From: Blasia pusilla
Taxonomy: Eukaryota
NCBI GenBank assembly: GCA_050084515.1
Contig: CM114271.1
Span: 19,344,001 to 19,408,000 of the forward strand
Reading direction: 5' to 3'
DNA length: 64,000 bases
Shown here: piece after piece, positions 302 to 56,575 of the stretch
Numbering within the stretch: the first letter of the stretch is position 1
Layout of the letters: each line of letters begins with the position of its first letter
Program-made: the position numbers and the translations under genes
Notes under the pieces: generated by a model
Databases searched by the model: none
What the model was told of the DNA's origin: nothing
Seen by the model: the letters and a program-made list of their open reading frames with translations, nothing else

Positions 302-1252
302 ATTCGGGTGTTGGATCTCTTTGGAGGGATGAGCAGTGGGTTAGCTGTTGTTTTGTACGCTGGAGTGCACATACAATAGTACGTGTATGTGGAGATTGAT
401 GATGTTACAAGACGCGCTTCACTTCACCGTGTGGCGCAGTTATGCCTCCGTTTTCCCAACTTCTTGTCTGCGTCCGCCATTCAGGGTTACTAGAGTTCCT
501 TACCGAGGGACATTTCATTGTTGGGGGCGCATGACTTGGAGCGGGTAGGGATTGTAGGCTTGGTCATTTCTGGTTGGCCGTATCAGGGCCAATCGAGTGT
601 TGGACGAGGTAGCAAGTTAGCTAACACTCGGTTGAGGTTGTTCTGGGAGATGATGCGGATCTTGCAAAATTTACAAGAGCATTAGCCTCATTCTCCAGCA
701 TACATTTTGGAGAATGTGCCGATTTTGGGCGATTCGAGGTCCTACGTGGTGACGAGTGCACATTAGGTGCGCGTATGGATCGGCCCCACAGTGTTGTTAG
801 ATGCGGAAAGTGTAGGTTCTAGAGCACACCGCCCGTGTCTTTGGTGGACCAACTTGGTACCATATGAGGTGTTGCGGAGGGCTTACGCAAGAGTGGAGCG
901 TCCCTTTGATTTGTTGGTGGATTCTGTATTGGATTTGGGCGGTCAATCACAGGAAATTAGGCTAGATGATCGACCACCGTTGATTGTGGTCAATAGGATT
1001 GGTAGGCCACGGGCAACCTTTCCCACATTGGTGAGTTTTCCCGCTTCCTATGCATTCAAGGAGGCCGGAACTGGCTTGGTTTGGGATGACCAAGTACAGA
1101 GGTTGGTGGATCTCAACGCAGATGAGCGAGAGCGAGCGATGGGATTCCCCACAGGAGTGACGGCAGTACCGTCACTATCAGAGGCATCACGACGTCATGT
1201 CTTGGGTTAGGCAATGGACTTAAACTGCTTGACATGGATTTTTAGCTTAGGA
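302..1252 (+). pseudogene. Retrotransposon-encoded DNMT3-like C5 cytosine methyltransferase domain (copy 1; catalytic Cys mutated to Tyr, in-frame stops)
   Basis: All in one frame: IRVLDLFGG (motif I, 302), YVEID (II), DI..L (III), LVISGWPYQG (IV, TAT at 581-583), ILENV (VI, 710-718), GSRAHRPCLWWTN (VIII), ERERAMGFPTGVT (IX), SRRHVLG*AMDLNCL (X). Resembles the DNMT3 catalytic domain (RARYFWGN; EMERVFGFP..T; ARQRLLGRSW). Confidence 0.9.
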
Positions 1253-1532
1253 GTAGCTGAGCAGCGTCGTTTGAGGATGCGACAGATCACAACTCTTACG
1301 CTAGTGAGCCCCATGCCTACGGAGATGGTTGAGGCAGTGGCTGGCGGCCAAACTCGAGGAGATCGACACACCAAAGGTGATCGGAAGAGACACCCTTGGA
1401 CTTCTTGGGATGTTTTGCAGGTACGCCAAGAGATGATAGCCACAACATTGAGCGTGGTTCCGGGTACTGCATGTGGAGATGAGAGTTCTATTGTCCGAGG
1501 CGGGGTTTCATCATAGCAACCATCGACATCCG

Positions 1533-2167
1533 TATCGTGCAAATACACATCGCTACACAACATACATCGTTGTCATCTAACACACACACAAACACACACG
1601 ATCCCATGCTAACTCATGGCATCCAAACAGCGAGACAAGAAGTACTAAAATATCTCCAATAAAGTAAGATCCAATCTCTCTCCACACTATCTCACACCAT
1701 AGCTCTCAAAGGTGTGCACTCTCTCTCATGTCAAACCAAACCCACTCTCCTAATGAGCGGCTTGGGTGACACTCACAAGGCAAGGGACCATAGCTCCGCT
1801 GCCTTATGCCAAGAGGTTCAACAAAGAGAGAATGAGCTCTCAAGCTCTCTCTTGGAGGTATATCCCCTTCCCTCTCCCAAGCCCTCTCAACCGTAACCTA
1901 TTCTCCCAAGTCACCTCCTTGGCTCTTGACCTGATGTAGGAGGTCAAGGGCCACTTACCAAAAATATAAAGTTGATCATACACTCAAAATGATACTTACC
2001 TAAAATAGTTCCTCAATATGGCTCCAAATGAGCCGAAACGAAGGAGAAACCTGCTCTCTTAGGTTTCTCAGGGCCTCAGTAGGTCATCCTCTGACTACTG
2101 AGCATTTTCTCCACTTCTAACAGAGGCTTTAACTAGATCTCACGGATCTATCCTAAAAGACGTGACA
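1533..2167 (-). mobile_element. Solo terminal unit (A+B, 635 bp) of the DNMT-Gypsy family, nested in reverse orientation in copy 1
   Basis: On the minus strand it reads TGTCAC...GCACGATA and is homologous to 5974-6620. Flanked by the 4-bp duplication TCCG (1529-1532 and 2168-2171). Removing it restores the linker QPSTSASESPTVVTMETWEP, collinear with copy 2. Confidence 0.88.
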
Positions 2168-2692: not shown

Positions 2693-2699
2693 CGGCGTT

Positions 2700-4090
2700 A
2701 GATACACCAGTTCCTTAGGAATTATAGGATTTATTTTGCATTTAGTATGTATGATTTGAATACGCGTAAGGGTCCAGGGATCCGCATTGAGTTGTCGAGT
2801 GACACGCCGATCTTCCGACGACGCTACAGGTACAATGACATGGAGAGGGATCTAATTTAGGGTAGGAGCTAGGACTTGGTTGGAGCAAGACTAGTGGAGA
2901 TGTCGCATGGAGAGGATGCATCAACCACTGTCATGCCCGCCAAGAAGGATGTGCATGGCAACTTGAAGGACAGGCGGATGTGTGGAGATCACCAACCTAT
3001 CAATCGACACAGAAAGTTCAATAGGTATGCCATGCCCACTCCTGAGCAGATCTTTTGATGTTATTGGACATGCAAAGGTCTTCAGTTTGTAAGATCTTCG
3101 AGCCGGATACCATCAACTGCCTCTTAGATTGGAGGACAGGTAGAAGACGGCAATTTGGGGCATCGATCCTCATGGGAAGGATTGCTTGTACTAGTGGCGG
3201 TTCTTACCATTTGGGTTAAAGAACGCCCCGGCTGAGTTTTAGAGGGTCGTGGATAGGATCTTGGATTGGGTCTAGATTTTACTATGTGTTATATTGATGA
3301 CATCGTAGTCTTTAGCGCCACGGTTGAGGAGCATGATCCACAGCTAGAGGAGGTGTCTCGACGATTGTAGTTACATGGGCTGAAGCTACATCCAAGCAAG
3401 TGCAAGTTCTTCTACGACCAGATTGAGTACCTAGGTCATATGATATATCCACGCCTTGATGTGCAACACACAAAGGTAGAGGCTATTTCATGCATTTCAC
3501 ACCCTACAAATGTGAGTCACGTTTGTGCATTCATGGGATTGGAGAACTTCTATTGACGATACGTCAAGGGTTTTAGCTCGATTGCAAAGCGGCTGACCTT
3601 GCTGACCAAGGTGGATCAGAAGTGGCACTCGGGGGATGAGCAAGAGAGAGCATTTCAGATGCTCAAGGACAGATCAACGTCCGCGCCCATATTGAGGAGA
3701 CCAATCAGGGAGCGTCCTTTCCAATTGCATACCCATTGCAGCATATTGGGGCTTGGAGCCGTGCTCACCCAGCATGACGATGATGGTTGAGAGTTCGTGG
3801 TGGCTTACGGTAGTCGCTCAAACAACGCTGCAGAGGAAAAGTATAGCTCGTATAAGGATGAGTGCTTGGCTGCAGTGTGGGATGTCGCACATTTCAAATG
3901 TTATCTATTTGAAAATCCCTTTACCATCATTATTGATCATCAGCCACTTAAGTGGTTGATGGAGTCCAACAAGCTTATAGGAAAGCTTGCGAAGTGGGCT
4001 CTTTTGTTGTAGGAATATGACTTCCAGGTGGTGCATAGACCTGGGATGCTCAACCAGGATGCAAATGGTTTGAGTCGTAACCCATGCCCG
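2700..4090 (+). pseudogene. Reverse transcriptase + RNase H of Gypsy copy 1
   Basis: PAKKD..RRMCGD, RYAMPTPE, DLRAGYHQL, PFGLKNAPAEF, CYIDD (3287-3301), FQLHT, YSSYKDECLAAVW, DHQPLKWL. Multiple stops and frameshifts. Confidence 0.93.
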
Positions 4091-4439
4091 AGTCAATGAG
4101 ATGCGACTCGAGCTCGTTGGCATGGTGAGAGTGATGAGGAGTTGGTGCTAGGATGGCATGCGTCAGCCTATTTGGGCTTGTTGGCTATGGAGAGCTAGAT
4201 TGTTGAGACTTCTATGGCAAGGTCTCATGGAGAGTCCTAAGATCCAGAGTCCAGTGAGGAGACGACACGTGGCCGAGACATTTACGACGATGGAGTGGTC
4301 TTGGAGTACCTACGTACTTGCAGCGTTGCGAGCATAGTGGTTGCTAGAGAGCGGGATCAGATCCTACAACGAGCAAGACGGTTTTGATGGGAGGGGACAC
4401 ATGTGTTATGAGTGTGGGAGGATGGTAGAGTGTGTGTAG

Positions 4440-5670
4440 TGCCTCATTCTTTGCAAAGAGCACGTTTGGTGCATTATGTCCACGAGGAGCTACGTCATTT
4501 TGGAATGAAGCGAACGTACAGCTTGTTAGGTTCAATATTGATGGCGAGGCATGCAGATTGACGTTCAGCAGTTTGTTGCTAGATGCATGGTGTGTGATCG
4601 AGTCCAAGCATCTTTCAATGCTCCGACTCCACACTTGCATCCACTTCCAATCATGGGTTTAGGTTATAGATGGAGTTTGGATTTTGCAGGACCTTTGCCT
4701 TTGATGGAGCATCATAGTCGTTATGTGTTGGTGATGGTCAAGCACTTCTTAAAGTGGATACAGTTGGTTGCCTTGCCAGACGAAGCAAGTGAGGGAGTAG
4801 CATCTGCCTTCCTAGATCGAGTGCTAAGTCATTACGGCGCACCAGCTAAGGTGTTGATAGACTAGGGTACAAAGTTCCACAGGGAGTTTCAAGCCTTGTG
4901 TGATCAGTTCGATCGACCATCGCACTACTTCACGAGATCATCCTAAGGTGGATGGACTAGCGGAGCGGGTTGTGTAGACGGTGAAGTGAGGACTACACAA
5001 GTAGATTGGGACCTTCAGTTGCCGTGGTTGGCCATGGGATACACATTCAACAGGTAGGCATCCGTAGCCTCTTTCTCATCGTTCTTCTTGATTTATGGCC
5101 GAGAGCCAAATTTACTCTGCGGCCATTCATTGAGATGTTGGTGAGATGTTGAACCTTGATGACCCTGATGTATGGATGCGAGCATGTTCTCAGAGGGTTG
5201 AGTTGTTTTGGAGAGTGATGCCCAACGCGTTTGAGAACTTGGCGATTGCGCAACACCGCGATACGTTGAGGTATGCAACTATTCGGGGAGGTGGTTATCG
5301 ACCTACTATCCGGAGGTTTCATCAAGGAGACTTTATCTACTTGCAGCAGACGGCACTCACAACGTTGGATGTGACTGCAGGGCGCACCATCTTGAGAGAG
5401 CGTGAGGTTTTGCCATCCGGTGTTCTCTTATTGGAGGGACGCGATGGTATGGTTTGGAAGGGCCATATGCGTAACCATGCACCATGTCATCTTTTGAACA
5501 TGGACGGTACAATTGATCAATGTTTGCGGTGTATGTCGTGTGGTTTTACCCGTGGTGCAATCACTATGCTAGTCTATGATGGGTGTTCGAGAGGATGGCA
5601 TATGACATGTTTGACGCCACCTCTCACTAAGATTCCTCAAAGCTGATGGATGTATCCTAGATGTACATAG
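4440..5670 (+). pseudogene. DDE integrase + C-terminal PHD finger of Gypsy copy 1
   Basis: VHEELRHFG...CMVC zinc-binding motif, WSLDFAGPL, VLID*G, DGLAERVV. Then CMSC..MLVYDGCSRGWHMTCLTPPLTKIPQS*WMYPRC (5530-5664). Confidence 0.9.
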
Positions 5671-5852
5671 CGTAGATAGTTCTAGATTGTGACTTATATC
5701 TATGACATGGATGACAAGAAGGCAACTAACGATGGGTCCACATGAGCACCCTGCCTTCTTGCTCTTAGCGTCTAAGAGATGCATGTCATGGTAGGTAGGG
5801 ATAGATGGCAATCTGGAGTTAGAGGGACCTAACCACCAACTAGGGAGGCGAT

Positions 5853-6620
5853 TGGAGATATTTTGGTACTTATTATCTCGTTGTTTGGATGCCATGAGTT
5901 AGCATGGGATCGTGCGTGTTTGTGTGTGTGTTCAGTGACAACGATTTTGTTGTGTAGCGATGTGTATGACAGGTGTCACATCTTCTAGGATAGATCAGTG
6001 AGATCTAGTAGGCCGCCTTCATGAGTAGTGGAGGATAGGCTCAGTAGGTTGAGGATGACTTGCTCAGGCCCCGTGAAACGTGACAGACCAGGTTTCTCCT
6101 TCGTTTTGGCTCATTTGGAGCCATATTGAAGAACTTACTATTTTAGATAAGTATCATTTTGAGTATATGATCAACTTTCTATTTTTGGTAAGTGGCTGTT
6201 GACCTCCTACATGAGGTCAAGAGCCAAGGAGGTGACTTGGGAGCATAGGTTACCATGGAGAGAACTTGGGAGAGAGAAGGGCCGATATACCTCAAGGAGA
6301 GAGAGCTTGAGAGCTCATTCTCTCTTTGTTGAACATTTTAGCATGAGGCGACGGAGCTATGATCTTGCTTGCCTTATTTTGTAACCCAAGCCTCTCATTA
6401 GGAGAGTGGGTTTGGTTTGACATGAATAGAGATATGTGAGAGTGCACACATGTGAGGACTATGGTGTTGTGAGAGAGATTGGATCTTATTTTATTGGAGA
6501 TATTTTGGTACTTCTTGTCTCTTTGTTTGGATCCCATGAGTTAGCATGGGATCGTGCGCGTTTGTGTGTGTGTTCGGTGACAGCAATGATTGTTGTGTAG
6601 CGATGTGTATGCGCACAATA
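5853..6620 (+). repeat. 3' terminal modules of copy 1: B1 (5853-5971) - GG - A (5974-6494) - B2 (6495-6620)
   Basis: 5853-5967 and 6495-6610 are near-identical direct repeats (TGGAGATATTTTGGTAC...GCGATGTGTATG). A starts TGTCAC. The purine tract AGGGAGGCG lies before B1, not before A. Confidence 0.85.
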
Positions 6621-7474: not shown

Positions 7475-8630
7475 ATACCCTAAACCCTAGCCCACTCTTC
7501 AAGAGAGAATCCAAGCTAAATACATGCAAGCCGCACTATATCACGGATACTAACAAGGGTCTGCAATCCTGAGTTCATCCAAGGTATACCCTCCTGGGCA
7601 CCTCAATGGGTGACGTGTAAACACAACTCACCTCCCTCCTAGCAGGTCACTACCAACCTGTAGTACACACAAAATAGCTCCCTAACAACTACACATGTGG
7701 TCCCCTCATGAGACCAACTACCAATTAACCCACGACCCTATAGATCCAAGTGGAGCCATACATGGCTGGGAAGGTCATCCTCTCCAAGGTTGTCATTCCT
7801 CATAAAGGGAAGGGTGACCTACACTCGTAGGTCGTCTCCTAAGAGCAGGTCACATATGACCTCTCAAAATAGGGGATCAGAAGACCCCTCTAAGGCCTTG
7901 ATACTATCTCGCCCTATGCCTCATCTACCATGATAGATGTCGTGCAAATACACATCGCTTTCAACATACATCGGCTGTCATGCACACGAATGTATGAGAT
8001 CCATCTAACTATGAATCCTAACATCTCTACACATGAACAAATGGACAACCCCAATCGCCCTCCTAGCTGATGGTTAGATCCCTCTAACTCTAGATAGCCT
8101 CCTAAACAAGTCTAAATGCCATGCACCTGTTTGGTGCTAAGATCAAGAGGTCGGGTGTTATGTCGCACCATCGTTAGTCACCTTCCTACAATCCATAACA
8201 TCAAGATTCATCTTGTATCTACCTATCACACCTATGTACATCTAGGATAAAGCGAACATCCCTGAGCAACCAAATCAACAGGCGGCGTAAAAAATGACAC
8301 ATGCCTTCCTCGATCACACCGATCACAAACTAGGATCGTGGCTACGCCTCTGGCAGACCCACACAACATGCATCTCAAGCCTACGGGAACAGCTGCCAAG
8401 CTCACATCAATCCCCCCATCTACCTTTAGAAGATGAAATGGCACACAGTTACATACATGATCTTTCCAAACGGTACCATCACGACCCTCTAAAACAAGGA
8501 CTCCTGAAGAAAAAATCTCTCGCACTCGCAAAATAGTTAGTCACGCCGTCCCGTCCAATGTCGTCAACGCTGTCTGTTGTAGGAAGACATAATTGCCAAG
8601 ATGGAACCTCCAAATCCCAGGATGGTTAAC
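7475..8630 (-). mobile_element. DNMT-Gypsy family copy 3, 3' fragment (integrase C-terminus, PHD, B1, A-like module)
   Basis: Minus strand: WRFHLGNYVFLQQTALTTLD...EGRDGTVWKDHV...CMLCGSARGVATILVCDRCDRGRH...YPRCT* (stop at 8232). Then the conserved GTTAGAGGGATCTAAC/purine motif, B ending GCACGACA at 7938, spacer TC, and A-like sequence from 7935. Confidence 0.88.
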
Positions 8631-11159
8631 TTCCTGTGAAGACTTCGAATGGAGTTTTATCATGAACTCCTACTGTTGGAGTTCGCTTGACTAAGAAGAT
8701 TGCACATGCTACAGCCTCTTCCCAATACACCTTAGGCATGTTCTTCTCATTCAGCATAGCTCGTGCCGCTTCAGCAATATGTCGATTCTTCCTCTCACCA
8801 CTCCATTTTGTTGTGGAGTGTAACGACAAGTCACTTGATATTGGATGCCATTCTGACGTAAATAGTCATCAAACTCTATTGAAAGATACTCTCCTCCTCC
8901 ATCACAACCCAATTTCAGAATGTGTTCTCCAGTCTGCTTCTCTACTTGAACTCTGAATGTTTGGAACATTGAGAATACTTCTGACTTGGATTTCATAAAG
9001 TATACCCATATATACCTAGAGAAGTCATCAATAAATGAAACAAAGTACTGGCAACCACTAAGGTTATGTTGTGATGTTGTCCACACATCACTGTGGATCA
9101 ACTCTAATATCTTGGATGTTCTTCTACCTTGCTTTGGAAATGGAAATCTAGCTTGTTTTCCAAATTGGAAAGCTACACATACCTCTAACGTAGCAGGACT
9201 CGCTAATTTAGAGATTCCTATTACTATATTAGATGATGAAAGACTCTGTAATCTTTGAAGATTCATATGTCCAATTCTTTTATGCCACACATTTAGATCT
9301 CGTGACTTGTTGGCCACTTTGACCATACATTGCTGTTTGAATCTCTGGCATAGAAACATCTAATTTGAACATTCTGCGAGATCTAGTTGCTTTGGCTATC
9401 GTACTCTGGTCATCCATTGTTTCAATGAAACAACCATCTGCGTTAAACTTCACTTGATAACCCTGTTCTACTATCTTTCCTATAAAGATTAGATTTCTTG
9501 CAATGGTAGGAACATAGAGAATATTTGCAAGAGCATAAAGACCATGTGATGCTATTGGAACTTTACCGGTATGCGTGATATGATGTTGAGAGTCAATCTC
9601 TTGTGAGTATAATTGGAGGATCGTTCACCGGCTTCAAACTACTGAACCATTTAGCTTGTGAGGTTATGTGGTTTGATGCACCGGAGTCAATATACCAATA
9701 TGCTGTCGAGTCTTTCTTGACCGTTGCTCCCATATGATGAGTCATGACCAAGAGATGCTCCGTTTGTGAATATTGTTATTCTTGGTACTGCTCTTGGTGT
9801 TATTGCTCCACATAGTTTTGTTGTTGTAAGGCTCCTATTCTCATATCTGCCTTCTTCTTGAAGAAAAACTTTACATAGTGACCCTTTATGCCACAGTAAT
9901 TGCAAGATCCAAGGACCCTCTATTGGTAGCCTCGACCCCAACGATTTCTACCATCACCACCTTGTGATTGTGTCTGTACTGGTTCGTAGTTGATTGAGTG
10001 ACGTTATATTGAGTGCTTCTTCCTCCATATGCTTGATATCCACCACGACCACGGAAGTTTTTGCCATGATCCCTGCCTTTGTTTGGTCCATAACTTGCAA
10101 ATAGCGCACAGTCTTGCAGACTAGACAAGCTACCGCTGCCTACTAGGCGCATTTCTTCACTGATTAACAGAGGAACTAACTCTTGAAAGGTTGAATACTT
10201 CTCTCTCACAGAGATAGAGGTCTCAAAGGACTTGTAATCCTTTGGAAGGCCTTGAAGAGTGAATAAAATCATATCATCATCTTCTATTGTCACTCCAATG
10301 CTATTTAACTAATCAACAATATGTCAGATACTCAAAATATAATCATTGATGCTCTACGATCCTTTCCTTACTTCGTTCAATTTCTGTTTTAATTGAAGCT
10401 TTTTGGCCTTTGTAGATGTCTGGAAGAACTTTTCCAATACATCCCAGGTCTCCTTTGGAGTATCAACATCTTGGATGTGACCTATCATTGGCGAACTGAT
10501 CGTTATTGAAATATAGTGGATTACTTGCCTTGCGCGTTTGTTCAAAGCTCAAACATTAAAGTCTATTGAGTCACCTTCTGGCTTGGCTTCATCACCTATG
10601 ACAAGCTCTCATAGTTCTTGACCCATGAGAAATTATTTCAAGCAAAATTTCCAAACATTGTAATTCTACTTGTCTAGCTTCTCGCCTGTGATTGTTGTTG
10701 AGGAATACTCCATGATAAACGATTTCACTCAAAAAAATGTAATTTCAAGCTTTCTACTGCTCCAATTGAAGCATAGACCACTCCTACATAGAAATCGACC
10801 TGCTCCTACATAGAGAGCAAACTGCACAACTTTTCTTCACTTATTGCACTTTCCTACACTGAAATTGCTGCTGCAGAAGCTTAGAGTGTCAGAATCAAGT
10901 GATTTTGGGTGCGTTGGAAAGCTCTTGACAAGCTCTACAAGACGGCTAGAACTTGCTTTTGGCATCATTCTAGCCGAAGCGGACCCAGATGGCAGAATCG
11001 ACCAAGAAAGCCCTAAAAAATGCCTCCAAAGTTTTATCACCGTCCAAGCTTCTCTTGAAATCTGCTCCCACGGAGCTATCAATAAAATTTCCTTCTCCCA
11101 AAATGAAATTGTGCCTTCTCTTGCCTCTCTTATCTCTTCAAATACCAAGAATTTCAAGT
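8631..11159 (-). mobile_element. Ty1/Copia internal fragment (5' leader, gag, protease, integrase N-half), no LTRs
   Basis: Closely homologous to 17120-19845: gag (LQGLPKDYKSF), CNYC..GH knuckle, YWYIDSGASNH protease, [33 protein letters not shown]. Truncated at both ends. Confidence 0.93.
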
Positions 11160-12450
11160 TATGGTCGTGTGACTATTGCCACAGATATGGTCACATTAGG
11201 GATAGATGTTTTGACCTTCGTCAAGAGGCACGTCCAGAGGTAGGCCGAGGGCCTAGGGGCAATCGTCCTGGAGGAAGTCACGGAGTCCTTCCTGGACATG
11301 GTGGTAGAGGACCACCACCAGCAAGAGGAGCTGGAGCAAGAGCACTAGAGCCGGCACTTCTCTCACGCATTGATCAGTTGGAGCAGAAGATTGCTGCCAT
11401 GACGATGATGCAGCTCAGGGAAGGCACTGAGCCGCGAGCAGCTAGTGTGGCTCCAGTTTCTACCTCTTACCCTAACCTAGGTGAGGATCTCACTAGTATG
11501 GGATTTATGTGTAGTGCAGCTCAGGTTGAGACTGCTGTAGTGGTGACTCGGGGTGCTACGAGAGGCATCGAGCCATCAAGAGGTGGAGTTGAGATTGAAC
11601 CATCAGAGGGGACCAATGGGCGGCAGGCCACAGTTCCACAGTCATTCACATTATCGAAGGCACTACACACACAATCGATGGTGCCTTGACGACCAGTGGT
11701 GCCTTTATGTCATGCAAGTATGTCGACGTTACAAGGAGTTGGAGTGACAACTCCTATGTTGGCTCAAGTGGAGTCAGTGTCGACCATAGTGTTGGAGGTG
11801 GCCATCAGAGTGAGCCAGACTCCACTATTTTCCGCCATAGAGTTGGCGACATTGGGAGTTGGACCAACTGAGGTGTTCCGGCTGGCCGCCACGTTGTGTG
11901 AGCGTGGAGAGGTGACCGCTTCTTGTTTTGAGGTAGTTGAGGAGGTGGTGGACTTGCCCTCAGAGCCGGTGCTCAAGACGTCCCCCACAGAGTGATGGCA
12001 TGCGGCGGCGGAAAAGTTGGTAGATATGCCAGCTCGACCGGCCATAGAGCAAGCAATGGTGACACCTCGAGTAGTGTTACTGGATAACCAAGCTAGAGTA
12101 TTTTGCTTGGTTAATCCGATGGGGAAAATATACCACCCGCAGCGCGTCCTACTTGATTCGGGAGCCGAGCCCTTGATGTTAGGGAAGGCGGCGTGTTTAG
12201 CGTTGGGGTTACGGAAGACCAACATTAAGCCTTTTCAGACCTCGATTGGGGGCGTGTCATCCACGCAGTATATGACTCGATAGGAGATAGTTTTTAGAGT
12301 CCATCCAGAGCATGCGACGGATAGTGCTATGGTGCGCACACGTGTGATTACAACACCAGCTGACTCATACGATGGGTTGGTGGTTGGTGGGGAGTACAGT
12401 ATTATATCCCCTAGGATTCATCCTTGACTTTTGGGAGGAGACCGTTGTTT
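11160..12450 (+). pseudogene. Gag C-terminus with CCHC zinc knuckle and aspartic protease of copy 2
   Basis: CDYCHRYGHIRDRC (11168-11209) followed by a G/R/P-rich segment. RVLLDSGAEPLMLG (Asp at 12155) is in the same frame. Confidence 0.85.
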
Positions 12451-12870: not shown

Positions 12871-14790
12871 GTTAGGGTGTTAGATCTCTTCGGAGGGATT
12901 AGCATAGGATTGGTTGCGGTATTGTAGGCGGGCATACGGGAGCATCAGTACCTTAATGTGGAGAAAGATGAGACTGCACAGCGAGTATCATTACGTCATG
13001 TAGCAAGATTGGTCCAAAGGTATCCAGAGTTGTTGCCGGTATCTGCAATACAGGGATATCATCATACACTACCCGCCGACATCTCTTTGGTGGGGGCGCA
13101 GGATCTGGATAGAGTTGGCACCAGTGTCACGACCCTCATGACCAAACGAGTGCCAAAGCAGAACATCGGAATATTAGTGGGCTCACACTAAGATGGTTTG
13201 CGCGTTGGAGTGGTCTCGAAGAAGAGACAAGAGACGGGATGCAAGCAAGGCTTTGCGTTTCAGATGTTGTGGTCGCGACTAAGAAACCTGGACCAAACGC
13301 GAAACAAGACTTGAAAGGAGTTGAGTTTAGAAAGTGGGTTGCCAAAGGAAGGAATCCGGATTTGGGACGCCACTAGCTTTGAGAGTTTTCAACTGTATTT
13401 ATGGCCATAACTTTTAGCGCCAAGATGCGTTTGGATTGGACAAGGATGTGTTGAAGGCTTATGAAAAGTTGGTTCAAACGCACTAAAGATCTCTGCTAAC
13501 GCATAAGCAGTGGCTGAGAAACAACCCGGAAACGACTGTAAGTAGAGTCGGGTTGAGGGCCACAATGAAGGGCCTGACCCTCCTTTTCCAAAGATGGGGG
13601 GTTATTGGAGAACCCCAGAAGTACTAGTAAGGGGAAGGTCTCCAAGAGTGCTTGGAACTCGAACCCCACTTTGGGCGCCATGAGGCGGCTCAAGGGAATG
13701 GAACGAATCGAGAGTTTGGGGTTGGGTTGGAAAACCTAAACCAAGTCTATGGAGGCGATTTTAGACATCCCTCTTGGATTTCACCCCGCAACTCAATTAC
13801 TTGGGTCTCGATTTGGAACTCACATGAGGTCCGTTGAACAGTTGGGATCGCTAGGCACGCAAGTGCCATTTTAGGTTCCTGGACTAATCAAGAAGTTTGT
13901 TCCAAGTCTTGAAGGTTGAGTTTGATGAGACGCCGAGGTGAGAACTCGGTGGGTTGGAACGCTGGTTGGCCTAGACCCGACTAACAAGAGTGCGTGTTTG
14001 GGTGCAGATCGGCGATGAGATCGTGTCCTACTGAACGTACGCTTCCGCAACAATAAAGATTGACGTTCAAGGAGAGTAGGGGCGCGATAATTCATTTGGT
14101 GATTGCTGGATGGCCATGTCAGGGTCATTCATCAGTTGGCCAAGGGTTTGGATTGCAGGACCCGAGGTCAGGGATGTTTTGGGAGATGTTGCGAGTAGTA
14201 CGACACTTGCAAGAGAGTCAGACATATTTTGCAGCATAGATTGTGGAAAACGTGCCATTTTTTGGAGACACTCGTGCACGTGTGATGACGAGTGTGCATC
14301 AGATGAAATCCTGGTTGGGACCTGCTGTGTTGTTAGATATAGCGAGAGTTGGATCACGCGCCCATCGTCCACGACTATGATGGACAAACTTGATACCATC
14401 AGAGGTACTGAGTCGAGCATACAATGGAGTCTAGAGAGCACCACATCTCACAGTGGATGCTATTTTGGGCTAAGGGCGTCAATCTCAGGTGGTGACGCGG
14501 GATGATAGACCACCGTTGGCGATGGCCAATAGGGTGGGGGAGTTGAGGGCAGCCTTACCTACATTGGTGAGCTTCCCAGCATCACATGCCTTTCGTCAAA
14601 GAGGGCCAGACATGATTTGGGATGAGGTGACCCAAGCATTGGAGGAGCCTACAGCACATGAGCGCGAGCGCGTCACGGGGTTTGCTACGGGTACTACTGC
14701 GATGCCACGTATGACTGAGGCATCCCGGAGACAGATGTTGGGGTAGGCGATGGACCTCAACTGTCTCACGTGGATAGTCCGCCTAGGTAT
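12871..14790 (+). pseudogene. DNMT3-like C5 cytosine methyltransferase domain (copy 2), split by a solo LTR at 13125-14089; catalytic PC intact
   Basis: VRVLDLFGG (12871), NVEKD, DISL, then the insertion. After it: LVIAGWPCQG (TGT 14117-14119), DPRSGMFWE, IVENVP, GSRAHRPRL*WTN, ERERVTGFATGTT, SRRQMLG*AMDLNCL. Confidence 0.93.
13125..14089 (+). mobile_element. Solo LTR, family L3 (~965 bp; orientation arbitrary)
   Basis: TGTCACGACCC...GGGGCGCGATA imperfect terminal inverted repeat. Absent from copy 1 at the equivalent site. A diverged relative lies at 60758-61539. No clean TSD. Confidence 0.8.
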
Positions 14791-15046: not shown

Positions 15047-16764
15047 CAACCAAAGCCAGAGGTTGCGTCCTCTCCAAGTGAGGTCACGATGGAGACTTGG
15101 GAGCCTATGATAGGTCTCAAGTTGATAGGAGGAGAGTGACGGCGAGTTCATAGGTTTCTAAGAGGGCTTGTCAGTTGTTTTGCCTTCAATATGAGAGACT
15201 TGGGTACGCTGAAGGATCTCCGGATACGGATTGAGTTGGCTATTGATACGCCGATCTTTCGTCGAACCTACAAGTATTGTGATAGGGAGTGAGCCTTGAT
15301 TTACAGCAGGAGTCAGAACTTGTTAGAGGCAGGACTTGTGGAGTTATCACATGGGGAGTATGCATCTGACACAGTCATCCCAGCGAAGAAGGATATGTAT
15401 GGTAATTGGATGGATAGGCGGATGTGTTGAGATTACCGTCTTATCAACCGACACACGAGGTCAGATCGATACGCCATGCCTACTCTTGAGGAGATCTTTG
15501 ATGCAATAGGGAATGCAAAGATCTTCAGTACTTTAGATCTCCGTACTGGCTGTCATCAGCTTCCTATCAGGTTGGAGGACAAGGAGAAGATAACATTCTC
15601 GGGGATAGATCGGTTCGGGAGAGATTGCTTGTATTAGTGGCGGTTTTTACCATTTGGGTTGAAGAACGCTCCTGCGGAGTTTCAGAGAGTGATGGATAGA
15701 ATTCTGGTTGGCTTGGAGTTTATACGATGTTACATAGATGATATTCTTACCTTCAATTCCACGGTTGAGGAGCATGAGTGACATCTGGAAGAGGTGTTTC
15801 GGCCATTGCAGTTACATGGACTGAAGTTGCATCCATGAAAGTGCAGATTCTTTCAAGAGCACATTGAGTACTTGGGACACATCATATACCCAAGTGGGTT
15901 AGGCGTTCAGTAGAAGAAGATGGAGGCTATTGCGCAGATTCCACGCCCTACAGATGTGAGTCGAGTCTGAGCGTTTCTTGGACAAGTGAACTTCTATCGA
16001 CGGTATATCAAGGGTTTTAGTGCGATCGCAAAGTCTTTGACCTTGTTGACGAGACTTGATCGTGTTTGGTTGTGGGGAGATGATCAGGAGTGAGAAATTT
16101 AGGAGCTCAAGGATAGGTTGACGTCCTCACCCATTTTACATAGACCGGTTAGGGATCGCCCATTCCAATTACATACGGATTAGAGCATGTTGGGTCTAGG
16201 AGCAGTGCTTTCTCAGAGGGATGACGAGGAGAGGGAGTTCGTTGTGGCTTATGTGAGCTGATCGAACAACATTGTAGAGGCAAAGTACAGCTCTTACGAG
16301 GGAGAGTGCTTGGCTGCAGTGTGGGCCGTGGCACATTTCAAGTGTTATTTATTCGGCAACCGTTTCACACTTATCACTGATCATCAACTGTTGAGGTGGT
16401 TGATGGAGTCCGACAAGCTTACCGGAAAGCTTGCCAGGTGGGCTCTATTACTACAGTAGTATGAGTTTGAGGTGGTTCATAGGCTAGGTCGGTTGAACCA
16501 GGATACGGATGGGTTGAGTCGTAACCCATGTTCGAGTTAGAGAAACGACACATGAGCTCGATGGCACCGAGAGAGTGATGAGGAGATGGTGCCCGATTAG
16601 CATGCATCATCTGCCTATCTTTGTTGGTTGACTATGGTAGGTCAGTCGCAGGTAATGACTCCAGTGGTGGGGTTGGATGATGAGTCTTTGGATCCGGAGG
16701 TCAGTGAGGAGGCGATAGGTGGTCGTGATATCCATGACGACGTGGAGGTTGTGGAGTTCTTACG
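15047..16764 (+). pseudogene. Reverse transcriptase + RNase H of copy 2
   Basis: Same frame as the MTase C-terminal half: PIFRRTYKY, PAKKD, RYAMPTLEEIFD, STLDLRTGCHQL, PFGLKNAPAEFQR, CYIDD (YIDD 15731-15742), FQLHTD, YSSYEGECLAAVWAV, TDHQLL. Confidence 0.94.
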
Positions 16765-17094
16765 TATTGAAGATTGAGTTACAGTCAAGCTCATGAGATA
16801 CCTAAACTACTATATTTGGTACTCACACGAAGTAGGAAAACTTAATCTTGGTTAGTCAGTTAAGCACGATTATCTTAACTACGGTTAGTTAATCACAGTA
16901 AGTCTAACACGAGACTATGGTTAAGGGTAGGGTTAGGGTTGCTTGTACATATCCTATGTAATTGAGAAGAGGACTAACCTCCACTTATTCTTTCATCGCA
17001 AATTTTGTTCTCCATGGTGGTGTGTGTGTGTATGTGTGTGTGTGTGTGTGTGAGCCTTTTTCTACCAATTCTGCTTGTTTAGCAGTTTTCCACA
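16765..17094 (+). repeat. Copia 5' LTR (TA...CA)
   Basis: Direct repeat of 21937-22248 with a longer (TG)n tract. Confidence 0.95.
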
Positions 17095-17106
17095 TGGTAT
17101 CACAGC
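17095..17106 (+). other. Primer-binding site, initiator tRNA-Met type
   Basis: TGGTATCACAGC, one mismatch from the canonical TGGTATCAGAGC, immediately after the 5' LTR. Confidence 0.9.
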
Positions 17107-17193
17107 GGGAAGAGAACATCACTTGAAATTCTTGGTATTTTAAGGGAGAAGAGAGGCAAGAGAAGGCACACTTTCAGTTTGGGAGAAGGAAAA

Positions 17194-17747
17194 TTTTATT
17201 GACAACACAGTGGGTGCAGATTTCAAATGGAGCTTTCACGGTGATAAAACTTTGGAGGCATTTTTTAGGGCCTTTCCGGTCGATTTAGCTGTCTGGGCCC
17301 ACTTCGGCTAGAATGATGCCAAAGACTGGTTCTAGCCGTCTTGTAGAGCTTGTCAAGAGCTTTCCAACGCACTCAAAATCGCTTGATTTTGACACTCTAA
17401 GCTTTTGCAGTACCAATTTCAGCATAGAAAAGTGCAATTAGTGAAGAAAAGTTGTGCAGTTTGCTCTCTATTTTATTCAAAGCTCAGTGGGTGCAGATTT
17501 CAAGAGGAGCTTGGACGGTGATAAAACGTTGGAGGCATTTTTTAGGGCTTTCCTGATCAATTCTGCCGTCTGGGTCCGCTTCGGCTAGAATGATGCCAAA
17601 GGCAGATTCTAGCCGTCTTGTAGAGCTTGTCAAGAGCTTTCCAACGCACCCAAAATCGCTTGATTCTGACACTTTGAGCTCCTGGATCAACAATTTCAGT
17701 GTAGGAAAGTGCAATTGGTGAAGAAAAGTTGTGCAGTTTGCTCTCTA
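17194..17747 (+). repeat. 277-bp tandem duplication in the Copia 5' leader
   Basis: Units 17194-17470 and 17471-17747. The sister Copia at 10810-11085 has only one unit. Confidence 0.9.
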
Positions 17748-17888
17748 TAGGCCAATTTCGACTAGTTCTTTCATACAGTTGATCAATTTGGGAAAATTTC
17801 AGGTCGACTTCTGTGTAGGAGTGGTCTATGCTTCAAGTGGAGCAGTAGAAAGCCTGAAATTACATTTTTGTGAGTGAAATCGTTTATG

Positions 17889-20800
17889 ATGGATTATTCC
17901 TCACCAACAATCATAGGCGAGAAGCTAGACAAGCATAATTACAATGTCTCGAAGTTTCACATGAAAAAATTTCTCATGGGTCAAGAACTATGAGAGCTTG
18001 TCATAGGTGATGAGGCCAAGCCAAAAGGTGACTCAATAGACTTGAATGTTCGCGCTTCGAACAAACGCGCAAGGCAAGTAATCCACTACATTTCAATAAC
18101 GATCGGTTCGCCAATGATAGGTCACATCCAAGATGTTGATATTCCGAAGGAGGCCTGGGATGCATTGGAAAAGCTATTCTAGATATCTACAAAGGCCAAA
18201 AAGCTTCAATTGAAACAGCAATTGAACGAAGTGAGGAAAGGATCGTAGAGCATCAATGATTATATTTTAAGTATCTGACATATTGTTGATTAGTTGAATA
18301 GCATTGGAGTGACAGTAGAAGATGATGATCTGATTTTATTCACTCTTCAAGGCCTTCCAAAGGATAACAAGTCCTTTGAGACCTCTATCTCTGTGAGAGA
18401 GAAATATCCAACCTTTCAAGAGTTAGTTTCTCTGGTGGATATCAAGCATATGGAGGAAGAGGCACTCAATATAACGTCACTCAATCAACTACGAACCAGT
18501 ACCACACACAATCACAAGGTGGTGATGGTGGAAACCGTTGGGGTCGAGGTCATCAATAGAGGGTCCTTGAATCTTGCAATTATTGTGGGATAAAGGGTCA
18601 CTATGCAAAGTTTTGCTTCAAGAAGAAGGGAAATATGAGAACATGAGCCTTACATCAACAAAATTATGTGGAGCAACAACACCAAGAGCAGTACCAAGAA
18701 CAACAACATTCACAAACGGAGCATCTCTTGGCCATAACTCATCATAGGGGAGCAATGGTTAAGAAAGACTCGACAACAGATTGGTACATTGACTCTAGTG
18801 CATCAAATTACATGACCTCACAAGCTAAATGGTTCAATAGTTTGGAGCCGGTAAAAGATTCTGTAATTGTGCTCACAGGAGATGACACTCAACATCATAT
18901 CACGCATACCAATAAAGTTCCAATAGCATCACATGCTCTTTATGCTCTTGCAAATATTCTCTATGTTCCTACCATTGCAAGAAATCTAATCTTTATAGGA
19001 AAGATAGTAGAACAGGGTTATCAAGTGAAGTTTAACGCAGATGGTTGTTTCATTGAAACAATGGATGACCAGACTACAATAGCCAAAGCAACTAGATCTC
19101 GCAGAATCTTCAAATTAGATGTTTCCATGCCAGAGATTCAAACAGCAATGTATGGTCAAACTGGCCAACAAGTCATAGATCTAAATGTGTGGCATAAAAG
19201 AATTGGACATATGAATCTTCAAAGATTATAAAGTCTTTCATCATCTAATATAGTAATAGGACTCCCTAAATTAGGGAGTTCTGCTACGTTAGAGGTATGT
19301 CTAGCTTGCCAATTTGGAAAACAAGCTAGATTTCCTTTTCCAAAGCAAGGTAGAAGAACATCCAAGATATTGGAGTTGATCCACAATGATGTGTGGACAG
19401 CATCACAACATAGCCTTGGTGGTTTGCCAGTACTTTATTTCATTTATTGATGACTTCTCTAGATATATATGGGTATACTTTCTGAAAGCCAAGTCACAAG
19501 CTTTCAGAAAGTTCAAACATTCAAAGTTCTAGTAGAGAAGCAGACTAGATAATACATTCTGAAATTGCGTTGTGATGGAGGAGGAGAGTATCTTTCAACA
19601 GAGTTTGATGACTATTTACGTCAGAATGGCATCCAACGTCAAGTGACTTACCGTTATACTCCAAAAAAAAATGGAGTGGTTGAAAGGAAGAATCGTCATA
19701 TTGTTGAAGCGGCACGAGCTATGCTGAATGAGAAGAACATGCCTAAGGTGCATTGAGCAAAGGCTGTAGCATGTGTAGTCTTCTTAATCAACCGAACTCC
19801 AACATCAAGAGTTCATGATAAAACTCTATTTGAAGTCTTCATAGGAATTAAACCTGATTTTTCCTTCTTGAAAGTATTTGGCTGTATTTGTTATGCTCAT
19901 GTTCCTTTTGAGAGACGTCAAAAATTAGACCCCAAGTCTGAAAGATGTATCTTCATTGGCTATGTTGATGGAACTAAGGGGTATAAGTGCTACATTCCAT
20001 CCTCTAGGCAGCTTATTATTAGTCGGGATGTTATCTTTGATGAGCTAAAGTCATGGTATGCTCCATCCAAGCCTATTCCACCTCTAAACTTGTCTGTTCA
20101 GAGAGAGAATATTCCTATAAACCAATAGACATTGTCTTCAACTTCCCCAAGTACTAGTGCAGGATTAGGAGAGGTCCTAGATTCATCCATTAAATCTGTG
20201 AGTCCATGGACGGAAAGAGTACATATTCAGTCTGTTGACACTAGTCAGAGCTCGAGGTAGATGTCAGAGGCATCTACCTCTAAACAACAACTTCGTAGAT
20301 CAAGTAGAGTTACACATCCAGTTCATAGATTCATAAATGAAGGTTTTCTTGTGACACATCATGCATATATGATGACTACCCTTCAACAGCAAGAGCCAAG
20401 TTATTTTGAAGAAGCTGCGAGTAAAGCCGAATGGATTGAAGCTATGGAGGAAGAGCTTGCTGCATTAAGACATCAACAAACATGGGAGCTGGTTGATATA
20501 CCTTCCGGTAAGGAAGCTATTGTTTGCAAATGGGTTTACAAAATCAAGCGCAATCAAGATGGTACAATTAACAGATACAAAGCAAGATTGATGGCTAAGG
20601 GCTATGCACAACAATATAGTATCGATTATGAGAAAACATTTAGCCTTGTTGTAAAGATGGCGACTACGAGAATAGTGGTTGCAATTGCAGCAAGTAAGAA
20701 GTGGAGATTATATCACATGGATATCAAGAATACCTTCTTGAATGGAGATCTATACGAAGAGGTATATATGACTCAACCACCTAGATACGAGCATCCCAAG

Positions 20801-21949
20801 TTTCCATTTCGCGTATGCAGGTTGAAGAAAGCTCTTTACAGGCTCAAACAAGCTTCAAAATCTTGGTATGGCAAGATTACATACGTTCTACAAGAGTTGG
20901 GTTTTAGGGTATGTGATTTTGACTCCTTGCTATATGTCTTGAGAGGACAAGATTATACAGTTCTCATTGTGTTGTATGTTGACGATCTCTTGATTACTGG
21001 GAGTACTGAAAAAATGGTACAACAAGTCAAGCTTAAGTTACAAGCAGAATTTGATATGAAGAACTTGGGAGAACTCAAGTATTTCCTTGGTATTGAGTTT
21101 ATCAAGGTTGGAGAGAGCATGTGGCTACTACAACAACAACATGCTCTTCATATGCTTTCAAAATATGGTATGAAGGCTTGTAAGCCAATATCTACACCGT
21201 TGGACCAGAGCGTGAAGCTAAGAGTGGATGAAGGAGAGTTGCTTGCAGACTCTAATATGTACACGCGCATGGTTGGAAGTTTGATCTATCTAAGTATAAC
21301 CAGACGAGATTTAAGCTATGTTGTTGGCCTAGTGAGCCAGTTTATACAAGCACCTCGAAAACCTCACCTTGATGTTGTGAGGAGGATTATTCGGTATGTG
21401 AAATTCTCTATTCAATTCGGGCTTCAATTTGAACCTTCTCCGAGTTTTCAATTATAGGGATTCATAGATGCTGATTGGGTAGGAAGCGTGTCTGATCCGC
21501 ACTCCACATCTGGTTATTCATTTACTTTGAGAAGCGTAGCTATAAGTTGGGCTTCAAAGAAGCAAGCTATAGTTGTTTTATCTTCAACAGAGGTTGAGTA
21601 CATAGCAGCAACCAATGCAGTATGTGAGGCGGTGTGGCTTCATCAATTACTTGTTGAGATTGGTGTTAGTAACTTAAGACCTAGTGTAATATTTACGAAC
21701 AATATTAGTAGCATCAAGCTTGCTAGTAACCCTGTGTTGCATGCTCGTACAAAGCATGTTGAGGTGCACTATCATTTTATCATAGAGAAAGTGCTTGCAG
21801 GAGAAATTGATCTTGTGTATATAGGCACAGATCATCAAATTGCTGACATCTTTACAAACGCATTGTCTAGAGATAAGATTGAGATGTTTAGAAAAGATTT
21901 AGACGTTGGAGATATCGATATGAGCTTGAGGGGGAGTATTGAAGCTTGA
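17889..21949 (+). pseudogene. Copia gag-pol polyprotein (disrupted)
   Basis: WYIDSSASNYM (PR), WHKRIGHMN, RCDGGGEY and NGVVERKNR (IN), CKWVYKIK/YKARLMAKG/LYVDDLL (RT), WASKKQ/HARTKHVEVHYHF/QIADIFT (RNase H). Stops and frameshifts present. Confidence 0.95.
21928..21936 (+). other. Copia polypurine tract
   Basis: GAGGGGGAG directly abutting the 3' LTR. Confidence 0.88.
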
Positions 21950-22248
21950 GTTACAGTCAAGCTCATAAGACACCTACACTGCTACATTTGGTACTCACAC
22001 GAAGTAGGGAAGCTTAATCTTGGTTAGTCAGTTAAGCATGATTATCTTAACTATGGTTAGTTAATCACAATTAGTCTAACTCGAGACTATGGTTAAGGGT
22101 AGGGTTAGGGTTGCTTGTACATACCCTATATAATTGAGAAGAGGACCAGCCTCCACTCATTCTCTTATTGCAAATTTTGTTCTCCATGGTGATGTATGTG
22201 TGTGAGAGTTGTTTTCCACCAGTTATGCTTGTTTAGCAGTTTTCCCCA
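21937..22248 (+). repeat. Copia 3' LTR (TA...CA)
   Basis: Direct repeat of 16765-17094. Confidence 0.95.
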
Positions 22249-22253
22249 TTGGG

Positions 22254-23656
22254 CACTAACGTCATAGTAAGCACAGTGAGTGCTAGAGAGCGGGATCGGA
22301 TCCTACAGAGAGCCAGGAGGTTCAAGTGGGAGGGGACTCATATTTTGTGGGTATGAGGAGATGGTAGGATACGAGTGGTACCTCATCCTTCCCAGCGAGC
22401 ACGTGTAGTGCGACATGCCCATGGAGAGTTGGGCATTTTGGAGTAAAGCGTACTTACAGCTTACTCCAAGTTCACTATTGGTGGCGCGGCATGCATACTT
22501 GGGTAGAGCAGTTTATGGCCATATGTATGGTATGTGACAGAGTGCAAGCATTCTTCAATGCTCCCACTCCACAGTTACATCCTTTGTCGATTATGGGTTT
22601 AGATTATCGGTGGAGTTTAGACTTTGCGGGACCTTTGCCATTGACGTGGCGTCATCACAGGTATGTGTTGGTCATGGTGGAGCATTTCTCCAAGTGGATA
22701 GAGTTGGTGGCACTATCGGAAAAGGCAAGCGAGGGAACAGCTAATGTGTTTCTAGATCGTGTGCTTAATCACTTTGGTGCACCGGCAGAGGTGTTGACTG
22801 ACCAAGGTACCGAGTTCAGGGGAGAGTTTCACGCCTTGTGTGATGAGGCGCTAATAGATCATCGCACCACGTCCAAAGATTATCCTAAGGCGGATGGGTT
22901 GGCGGAGAGAGTAGTACACACGGTGAAGAGAGGATTGTGCAAGTATGGCTTGTAGCGAGGACAGTTGAGGGAGTGGGACCTACAATTTCCATGGTTGGCT
23001 ATGGGTTATCGCTTTAGTCAGAAGATATCCTTGGTGTCATTTTCACCGTACTTTTTGCTCTTTGGGAGAGAGCCAGATTTACCTACAGCTATTCGACGTG
23101 ACATGGAAGAGGTGTTAGATCTTGATGATCCAGATGTGTGGATATAAGCGTGTTCACAAAGGGTGGAGATTTTTCAGAGAGTTATGCCTATGGCCTTTGA
23201 GAACTTAGCTATTGCTCAACATAGAGATACATTGATAAACGCGACCATCCGTGGAGGAGGTTATCGTCAAGGATTAGGAGGTTTCATCATGGAGATTACG
23301 TGTATTTACAGCAGGCGGCACCCACGACACTAGATGTCACTGAAGGGGCACGATCCTACGTATGCGCGAGGTATTACCGACCGGAGTCCTCATGTTGGAA
23401 GGACGAGATTGTATGGTTTGGAAGGATCATGTGCACAATTGTGCGCCATGTCATCTTCCGAACGTGGACGAGACAATGGATCTAAGCTTGGCAATGGTAC
23501 TTGCAGGTTTGAGGTGTATGTTGTGCGGATCTACGAGGGATGCGGCCACCATGTTGGTATGTGATTGTTGTTCTCGAGGGTGGAATATGTCATGTCTGAC
23601 CCCCCCTTCTTGATGTAGTTCCCACGGGACGATGGATATGTCCGAGATGTGTATAG
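22254..23656 (+). pseudogene. DDE integrase + C-terminal PHD finger of copy 2
   Basis: HGELGHFG (frameshifted)...CMVC, WSLDFAGPL, VLTDQGTEF, ADGLAERVV. PHD reads CMLCGSTRDAATMLVCDCCSRGWNMSCLTPP(1-nt shift)LDVVPTGRWICPRCV* (23515-23656). Confidence 0.93.
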
Positions 23657-24077
23657 GGTAGTAGGTCATCTCAGAGATATGTGATATTTTCTATCTAGAG
23701 TTAGGAGGATCCAACTGCCAACTAGGGAGGCGGTTGTGTGATCTCCATGTATATGTATGAGTTGATTTTTGTACATCTGTGGATCCACCCGTGTGTGGGG
23801 AAGATCGATGTTGTGTGGTATAGATGTGACCAACGATGTATATTCTGTAGCGATATGTATGCGCATAACAGCTATCACATCTGAGTAGTCGATAGGCCGA
23901 GATCTATTGTGGATGGGCCATTGGAGCACCTCTCTTGTATGTGTGTGAGATAGGACTAGGGTGCTAGCGTCCGATTCCTTGATAGCGCAGGTGGACGAGG
24001 CTCGATATGCCGATGTAGATTGAGGAGTGGAGTTTTACGCCCGGAGTGTCGTTTTTACTTTTCTTTATTTTTCTTCA

Positions 24078-26393: not shown

Positions 26394-26593
<200 letters not shown>

Positions 26594-56559: not shown

Positions 56560-56575
56560 ATCAATCTTATAGTAC

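Follow-up and report, generated by a model that had tools for sequence, protein, structure and literature searches.

The stretch of DNA analyzed here comprises 64,000 nucleotides from Blasia pusilla (NCBI GenBank assembly GCA_050084515.1, contig CM114271.1, positions 19,344,001 to 19,408,000 of the forward strand) and is referred to as the window. It contains two diverged copies of a retrotransposon pol region in which a C5 cytosine methyltransferase (MTase) domain precedes the reverse transcriptase (RT). The copy 1 MTase lies at 302-1252, where in-frame translation gives 317 codons with C5-MTase motifs, and the copy 2 MTase is the same type of domain (PF00145), in two parts at 12871-13119 and 14087-14788. 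The Pfam PF00145 match had an E-value of 3.4e-5 in copy 1 and 1.1e-7 in the C-terminal part of copy 2. A tblastn search with the copy 1 translation against the whole window recovered exactly one further copy, which lies on the same strand and is split into two segments, each aligned without gaps (12871-13119, 83 aa, 56.6% identity, E 5.9e-23; 14078-14788, 237 aa, 56.1% identity, E 6.5e-83). An earlier note, made from the letters of the sequence, had proposed that a second, clearly diverged copy carries the same methyltransferase at the same element position, and the domain match, the tblastn search and the collinear pol regions described below bear this out.

Results and Discussion

Two collinear copies of a methyltransferase-bearing element

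Once a 967-bp insertion in copy 2 (13120-14086) is excluded, all 317 codons of the MTase pair without gaps between the copies, with an amino-acid identity of 56-58%. Every motif quoted in the earlier note (RLFWEMMR/GMFWEMLR, DDRPPL, PTLVSFPAS and MDLNCLTWI) is present and in register. Motif I (LDLFGG) and motif VI (ENV) are found in both copies, and the motifs follow the unrearranged order I, IV, VI, VIII, IX, X. The strong nucleotide divergence and variable linkers described earlier are also apparent: nucleotide identity by codon position is 65/81/42%, and the linkers are less conserved than the MTase, since the stretch directly 3' of it (1253-1369 in copy 1, 14789-14905 in copy 2) is only 38% identical in amino acids.

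The similarity extends well beyond the MTase. Pfam searches of the three forward frames gave the same domain order in both copies (DNA_methylase, RVT_1, RT_RNaseH, Integrase_H2C2, rve), and tblastx between the two regions showed them to be collinear along the whole of pol. The full element order is gag (CCHC), protease (PR), MTase, RT, RNase H (RH), integrase (IN) and a PHD-like finger. Copy 1 is truncated by the start of the window and runs through the MTase, a foreign insert (~1533-2695), RT, RNase H, integrase and the PHD-like finger; copy 2 retains part of gag, of which the first ~333 residues are missing at a junction with a Copia element. No tyrosine recombinase (Phage_integrase) was matched by Pfam in the three forward frames of either copy, and a DDE integrase (rve, Integrase_H2C2) is present instead. 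Pfam likewise gave no Chromo match at the integrase C-terminus of either copy. The PHD matches there are weak, at 20.6 bits in copy 1 and 18.2 bits in copy 2, both under the cut-off of 24, whereas PHD fingers are clear in relatives.

Selection on the methyltransferase

We compared copy 1 with copy 2 by Nei-Gojobori counting of the proportions of synonymous (pS) and non-synonymous (pN) differences, with stop codons excluded. The MTase (307 codons) gave pS 0.745, pN 0.256 and pN/pS 0.34, RT/RNase H (462 codons) gave 0.647, 0.175 and 0.27, the integrase (390 codons) gave 0.681, 0.168 and 0.25, and the linker after the MTase (38 codons) gave 0.624, 0.385 and 0.62. The earlier note had suggested comparing dN/dS across these domains, and had read protein-level conservation between diverged subfamilies as long-term purifying selection on the MTase as part of the element. 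The ratio for the MTase is not near 1, and the proposed selection is upheld by two further results. Shifting the MTase alignment by one or two bases raised pN/pS to 0.88 and 1.59, compared with 0.34 in frame, and the excess of synonymous over non-synonymous change in the MTase was large (z = 13, Fisher P ~1e-38). Like the identities by codon position, the shifted-frame control and the synonymous-excess test are independent of any estimate of dS. Omega for the MTase (dN/dS) was bounded rather than estimated, at 0.10 by NG86, 0.20 by LWL85 and 0.025 by maximum likelihood, with synonymous sites saturated. Part of the difference between copy 1 and copy 2 is neutral decay, because both copies are long dead.

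These values bear directly on the idea that the MTase travels as a neutral passenger, derived from a single capture of a host Dnmt3 fragment that has since been subject to no selection. Both window copies are broken and 29 of the 31 related copies from metagenome contigs contain stops, as such a passenger would be expected to show. Against it, pN is far below pS in frame and not in shifted frames, the catalytic residues are kept in 131-133 of 133 homologs of only 30-65% identity, and the domain occurs in hundreds of diverged polyproteins. We therefore regard the passenger explanation as highly improbable. The earlier note had also argued against a one-off gene capture and, in the sense of an unselected passenger, such a capture is contradicted by the in-frame constraint and the kept catalytic residues.

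Conservation and enzyme class in relatives

A phmmer search of 1.84 billion cluster representatives returned 1260 matches at E<=1e-3, of which 164 were at E<=1e-30. Among 133 database homologs covering the whole domain, the motif IV Cys is present in 132, the remaining one having a gap; the ENV Glu is present in 133/133 and the ENV Asn in 126/133, and the two motif VIII Arg residues in 132/133 and 131/133. In the 31 full-length related copies from metagenome contigs, the motif IV Cys codon is TGC or TGT in every case. That the family keeps this Cys, which the earlier note had asked of a consensus, thus holds by column counts rather than in a built consensus.

For the kind of METHYLTRANSFERASE, we compared a 20-sequence family profile with the PDB. 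The best solved-structure match was DNMT3A (E 2e-25), followed by DNMT3C and DNMT3B (to 6e-22), plant DRM (2e-16), M.HhaI (5e-9) and DNMT2 (2e-7); DNMT1 was not among the 57 PDB matches of the profile. The element MTase is accordingly classed by sequence as a Dnmt3-type C5 cytosine methyltransferase.

Decay of the two window copies

Both window copies are dead, with no present function and no reading frame capable of encoding the enzyme. The copy 1 MTase has five in-frame stops, all TAG, three of which stand opposite CAG in copy 2; the copy 2 MTase has six in-frame stops in addition to its insertion. Stops also interrupt RT/RNase H (13 in copy 1 and 15 in copy 2, with frameshifts) and the integrase (8 in copy 1 and 2 in copy 2). 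The motif IV change reported earlier was found as described: a single G-to-A change at position 582 turns PC into PY in copy 1, the codon at 581-583 being TAT (Tyr), while the corresponding codon in copy 2 (14117-14119) is TGT (Cys), so that copy 1 has PYQ and copy 2 PCQ. Because all 31 related DNA copies have a Cys codon there, the copy 1 Tyr is a change private to that copy, and an inactivating one. In motif VIII, copy 1 reads RPC, its second Arg being replaced by Cys (TGT, CGA in copy 2), and copy 2 reads RPR.

A TAG occurs at the same motif X codon in both copies (1208-1210 and 14744-14746). Nine of the 10 closest database relatives have LGQAMDLNCLTWI (Gln there, CAG/CAA) and one has His; the codon is TAG or TAA in 4 of the 31 related metagenome copies, and the third codon positions flanking the shared TAG differ between the window copies. 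Given the Gln in relatives, the differing flanks and the stops in other copies, the shared TAG is best read as a recurrent, parallel C-to-T hit. Another TAG common to both copies sits within RT/RNase H.

Several alternative accounts of these interruptions were rejected. A conserved read-through stop at the motif X TAG is ruled out by the Gln in nine of the 10 closest relatives and the His in the other. An alternative code in which TAG encodes Gln is ruled out by TGA and TAA stops and frameshifts in RT/RH and IN of both copies; the standard code applies, since stops of all three kinds occur. The 967-bp interruption is not read as an intron, as no GT-AG borders restore the frame, and we take it to be an insertion; it has no similarity elsewhere in the window and no clear target-site duplication. 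Stop codons apart, a decay spectrum driven by methylation was not supported, with no dominance of C>T/G>A among the polarized changes (32/113 in copy 1 and 22/90 in copy 2).

Relatives, domain orders and trees

The closest named relatives of the window MTases are from liverworts, namely Calypogeia fissa (64-67% identity), Marchantia polymorpha (58-67%), Marchantia paleacea (61%) and Riccia sorocarpa (62%), followed by Sphagnum troendelagicum and S. tenellum (57-60%). Many of the M. polymorpha relatives are listed as "hypothetical proteins." More distant are Closterium (33%), Klebsormidium nitens GAQ93235.1 (31%) and a Scenedesmus "pol" (37%). The K. nitens protein (P0137) was found by phmmer at E 1.1e-32 and has the order zinc knuckle (ZnK)-PR-MT, MT standing for the methyltransferase domain.

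The order seen in the window, ZnK-PR-MT-RT-RH-IN, is shared by proteins of Marchantia, Closterium and Klebsormidium and by unnamed long open reading frames (ORFs). Single-ORF relatives include P0294 (2240 aa, PR-MT-RT-RH-IN), P0303 (ZnK-MT-RT-RH-IN) and the Marchantia proteins P0163 and P0173 (MT-RT-RH). The MTase occupies the same place in both window copies and in liverwort, Closterium and Klebsormidium relatives, and the single ORFs with this order mark it as part of the element rather than a neighbor. Other long matches are mostly RT-RH-MT-IN-PHD. Sorted by order, 186 database homologs comprised 47 RT-MT-IN, 17 RT-MT, 19 MT-IN in which no RT was seen, 14 MT-RT or MT-RT-IN, and 89 with the MTase alone. 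Some RT-RH-MT-IN relatives (among P0047, P0099, P0015 and P0311) carry a G-patch or a PTM/DIR17-like Tudor domain, and P0311 (2311 aa) has the order RT - PHD - PCIF1_WW - DNMT - RNase H, unusually combining domains linked to chromatin with others linked to RNA modification in one retroelement ORF.

The two orders are also separated in trees. In an unrooted FastTree of 135 MTase domains, MT-before-RT and RT-before-MT proteins fall on opposite sides of one branch with support 99: the window side has 38 rows, 11 of them MT..RT and 0 RT..MT, and the other side has 97 rows, with 60 RT..MT, 15 MT..IN and 0 MT..RT. A quick IQ-TREE search with a mixture model on 47 rows gave the same split (98% SH-aLRT), with K. 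nitens P0137 on the window side. P0137 belongs to the MT-before-RT set, as do the window copies, but is not their sister. The window copies themselves lie in a group made up mainly of liverwort sequences (support 100) that shows no resolved internal branching, and they differ from each other as much as copies taken from different liverwort genera do.

Terminal repeats and other features of the window

Copy 1 ends in split direct repeats (Table 1). The full A1-coding-B1-A2-B2 layout, with A1 upstream of gag, is found in two of six related metagenome loci (L049 and L065). Four of the six (L049, L065, L058 and L027) have the B1..B2 pair, and L019 and L038 have neither feature. The foreign insert of copy 1 includes an inverted A-B unit, which may be what is left of an element that recombined or lost its 5' part.

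Table 1. Features of the two element copies in the window, by position
Positions	Strand	Feature	Evidence or remark
302..1252	+	Copy 1 C5 cytosine methyltransferase domain (Dnmt3-type), dead	In-frame translation, Pfam, alignment
1253..1532	+	Copy 1 post-MTase linker, poorly conserved; homology to copy 2 followed to ~1456	tblastx
1543..2167	-	Inverted A-B terminal-repeat unit of a related element, inside copy 1 (B 1543-1660, A 1661-2167); foreign sequence on to ~2695	
2696..4168	+	Copy 1 RT + RNase H (RVT_1 ~3063-3445, RT_RNaseH ~3635-4018), frameshifts, 13 stops	Pfam, tblastx
4310..5114	+	Copy 1 integrase, decayed (rve core ~4665-4910)	Pfam, tblastx
5122..5646	+	Copy 1 integrase C-terminal region with PHD-like finger	Pfam PHD 20.6 bits, below 24
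5851..5968	+	Copy 1 split direct repeat B1	
5969..6492	+	Copy 1 split direct repeat A2, 524 bp	Same layout in related loci L049, L065
6493..6611	+	Copy 1 split direct repeat B2, 92% identical to B1 (119-bp pair)	
11168..12388	+	Copy 2 gag C-terminal part: CCHC zinc knuckle 11168-11209, aspartic protease LLDSGAEP 12149-12172	
12871..13119	+	Copy 2 MTase N-terminal part (motif I), 1 in-frame stop	tblastn, alignment
13120..14086	.	967-bp insertion splitting the copy 2 MTase	Alignment
14087..14788	+	Copy 2 MTase C-terminal part: motifs IV PCQ, VI ENV, VIII RPR, IX, X; 5 in-frame stops	tblastn, Pfam
15140..16612	+	Copy 2 RT + RNase H (RVT_1 ~15419-15886, RT_RNaseH ~16073-16462), 15 stops	Pfam, tblastx
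16770..22245	+	Nested Ty1/Copia element between copy 2 RNase H and integrase, approximate borders	
22249..23081	+	Copy 2 integrase (H2C2 ~22431-22547, rve ~22605-22880)	Pfam, tblastx
23088..23607	+	Copy 2 integrase C-terminal region with PHD-like finger	Pfam PHD 18.2 bits, below cut-off
23693..23865	+	Copy 2 remnant resembling the copy 1 B repeat region; A2/B2 not recognizable	

The surroundings are heavily nested. Two Ty1/Copia copies, ~92% identical to each other, lie at 8626-11166 (minus strand), where the insertion removes the 5' part of copy 2 gag, and at ~16770-22245 (plus strand), where it splits copy 2; the long terminal repeat (LTR) region of the latter contains a tandem duplication (17114-17748). 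Further Gypsy-Dnmt3 fragments on the minus strand, at 8232-8606 and 26183-27030, consist of the C-terminal end of an integrase, bearing a PHD-like finger, and of two short pieces from the N-terminal part of gag, and may be the two ends of a third element that hosts the nested copy 2 and the Copia elements. A short unclassified repeat family occurs at 2251-2692, in the foreign insert of copy 1, and as an inverted pair downstream of copy 2 (24078-24293 and 24429-24777). From 24.5 to 64 kb the window has four ORFs of at least 180 aa, none with a Pfam match. It includes an AT-rich stretch (54001-60000) with a GC content of 0.29-0.31, compared with 0.40-0.54 elsewhere, and no ORF of at least 180 aa.

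Interpretation and possible role of the methyltransferase

Based on the collinear architecture, the constraint on the MTase and the order of domains in relatives, we conclude that the window very probably contains two old, inactivated copies from two diverged subfamilies of one Ty3/Gypsy-type lineage, in which the MTase is an integral, selected module that was under purifying selection for as long as the lineages were active. That the MTase ORFs are instead the remains of a host DNMT3 gene lying by chance between retrotransposon fragments, as might be suggested by the nested landscape, in which foreign sequence is inserted to either side of the copy 1 MTase and within that of copy 2, is scarcely credible given that the PR-MT-RT order occurs twice in the window with collinear flanks on both sides and recurs in single ORFs of Marchantia, Closterium and Klebsormidium relatives.

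As for what the domain does, the MTase would be made as part of Gag-Pol, and we tentatively propose that it methylates cytosines de novo on the reverse-transcribed DNA of the element or on the DNA at its integration site. New element copies would then enter the genome already carrying 5-methylcytosine. Methylation of cDNA upon reverse transcription has been put forward for DNMT-bearing DIRS elements in the text of the study that described KnitGypsy-Dnmt3 of Klebsormidium nitens (de Mendoza et al. 2018, Nat Commun 9:1341; PMC5890265), which also reports that two SymbioDIRS DNMTs methylated CG de novo when placed in yeast. A self-limiting role of the MTase is possible.

We consider it unlikely that the MTase acts catalytically on RNA, either the genomic RNA of the element or its tRNA primer, or serves structurally in the particle, and not on DNA. 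Its position directly upstream of RT, next to the RNA template, would suit an RNA substrate, as would two points in the published text: the KnitGypsy-Dnmt3 domain showed no DNA methylation in yeast, and RNA methylation was raised by the authors for LINE-borne DNMTs (PMC5890265). The family profile, however, matches the DNA enzymes DNMT3A/B/C (E 1e-25 to 1e-20) far more closely than it does DNMT2, which acts on tRNA (2e-7), and the negative yeast result is uninformative, as human DNMT3B was likewise negative in that assay (PMC5890265).

A number of observations weigh against an integral, selected, DNA-methylating module in these elements or against its link to the published one. Synonymous sites are saturated between the window copies, which leaves omega without a point estimate. 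The MTase protein has changed faster than RT/RH or IN (pN 0.256 compared with 0.175 and 0.168; z 4.1 and 4.3). Pairs among the 31 related metagenome copies with dS <0.8 have omega of 0.57-0.85, and the MTase is stop-free in only 2 of these 31 copies, so most of the surveyed copies are not under selection now. The deep pairs (dS 1.5-1.9) have omega of ~0.18, with 28 of the 465 pairs too saturated to score, and this pattern fits neutral decay on terminal branches and selection in active lineages on deep ones. The A1 repeat of copy 1 would fall upstream of the window, and copy 2 shows a B-like remnant only. The trees are unrooted and contain no host DNMT3, and are compatible with one capture followed by a move within pol or with two captures. 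The identity of P0137 with one of the published KnitGypsy-Dnmt3 copies is something we infer from species and architecture. Finally, the published text states that the KnitGypsy-Dnmt3 domain gave no methylation in yeast, a result its authors call inconclusive (PMC5890265).

Beyond the window, Gypsy-Dnmt3, first described in Klebsormidium, may represent not a peculiarity of charophytes but an ancient and widely retained retrotransposon lineage of green plants that reaches land plants (liverworts and Sphagnum). Its sister group, spread over chlorophytes and numerous unnamed environmental eukaryotes, would have the Dnmt3 module after RNase H. We advance this broader picture with some reserve. If it is true, the position of the Dnmt3 module reflects either a shift along pol or two separate captures, these elements have for a very long time been unable to do without a de novo methyltransferase of their own, and bryophytes such as Marchantia offer a tractable system in which to ask why a transposon methylates DNA. 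Cytosine methylation is the main tool with which hosts silence transposons, which makes it paradoxical for a transposon to bring a de novo methyltransferase of its own. Many such gene models, with no annotation beyond hypothetical protein, are present in Marchantia, Calypogeia, Riccia and Sphagnum, and since Marchantia is genetically tractable, the role of the element methyltransferase could be tested there.

Comparison with known systems

Among host enzymes, DNMT3A, DNMT3B, DNMT3C and plant DRM resemble the element MTase most, as its best solved-structure matches. Unlike them, the element MTase has no PWWP or ADD domain and is embedded in a retrotransposon polyprotein, and unlike those of DRM its motifs are not rearranged. 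The window elements differ from chromoviruses in having no Chromo match and a weak PHD match at the integrase C-terminus.

Two other groups of elements combine a Dnmt3-type domain with Pol. The RT-RNaseH-MTase-IN-PHD polyproteins (e.g. "pol" of Scenedesmus sp. PABB004, P0020) have a homologous Dnmt3-type domain at 30-40% identity, the Gypsy RT/RH/IN set and a C-terminal PHD finger, PHD-like in the window elements; they differ in that their MTase follows RNase H, whereas that of the window elements precedes RT. SymbioDIRS-Dnmt3 of Symbiodinium, as described in the published text, shares the Dnmt3-type domain in Pol and the split direct repeats, but belongs to the tyrosine-recombinase (DIRS) elements, and the window elements have a DDE integrase (PMC5890265).

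The closest known system is KnitGypsy-Dnmt3, for which the K. nitens domain order is taken here from P0137 (ZnK-PR-MT). According to de Mendoza et al., its DNMT is kept by purifying selection inside a Gypsy element, and its termini are DIRS-like split direct repeats in the order A1-coding-B1-A2-B2 (PMC5890265, Fig. 4 legend). The window elements and their relatives resemble it in having a Dnmt3-type DNMT inside the Pol polyprotein of an LTR/Gypsy-type element, in the conservation of catalytic residues across the family and purifying selection on the domain, and, for copy 1 (B1-A2-B2) and some related loci, in DIRS-like split direct repeats joined with a Gypsy domain set (PMC5890265). They differ in that the window MTase is ~31% identical to the K. 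nitens protein and the window copies are dead. The closest relatives of the window copies are from liverworts and Sphagnum, hosts outside the 2018 survey, whose Supplementary Data 1 lists 13 Viridiplantae without a liverwort, Sphagnum, Closterium or Scenedesmus (PMC5890265).

Elsewhere, a 2026 preprint refers to "streptophytes (Gypsy-DNMT3)" (10.64898/2026.05.21.726589), and a further article mentions DNMT3 in streptophyte retrotransposons (PMC12344493). Full-text searches, whose coverage excluded subscription journals and bioRxiv supplements, found no paper describing Gypsy-Dnmt3 elements in bryophytes or the RT-RH-MT-IN group. Among streptophytes, the published case comes from a single alga; the window and its relatives show the same element type in land-plant-type genomes, sharing with it both the domain order and the unusual split direct repeats. 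The element type is thus already known from K. nitens, and the window extends the published conclusion to a new host group.

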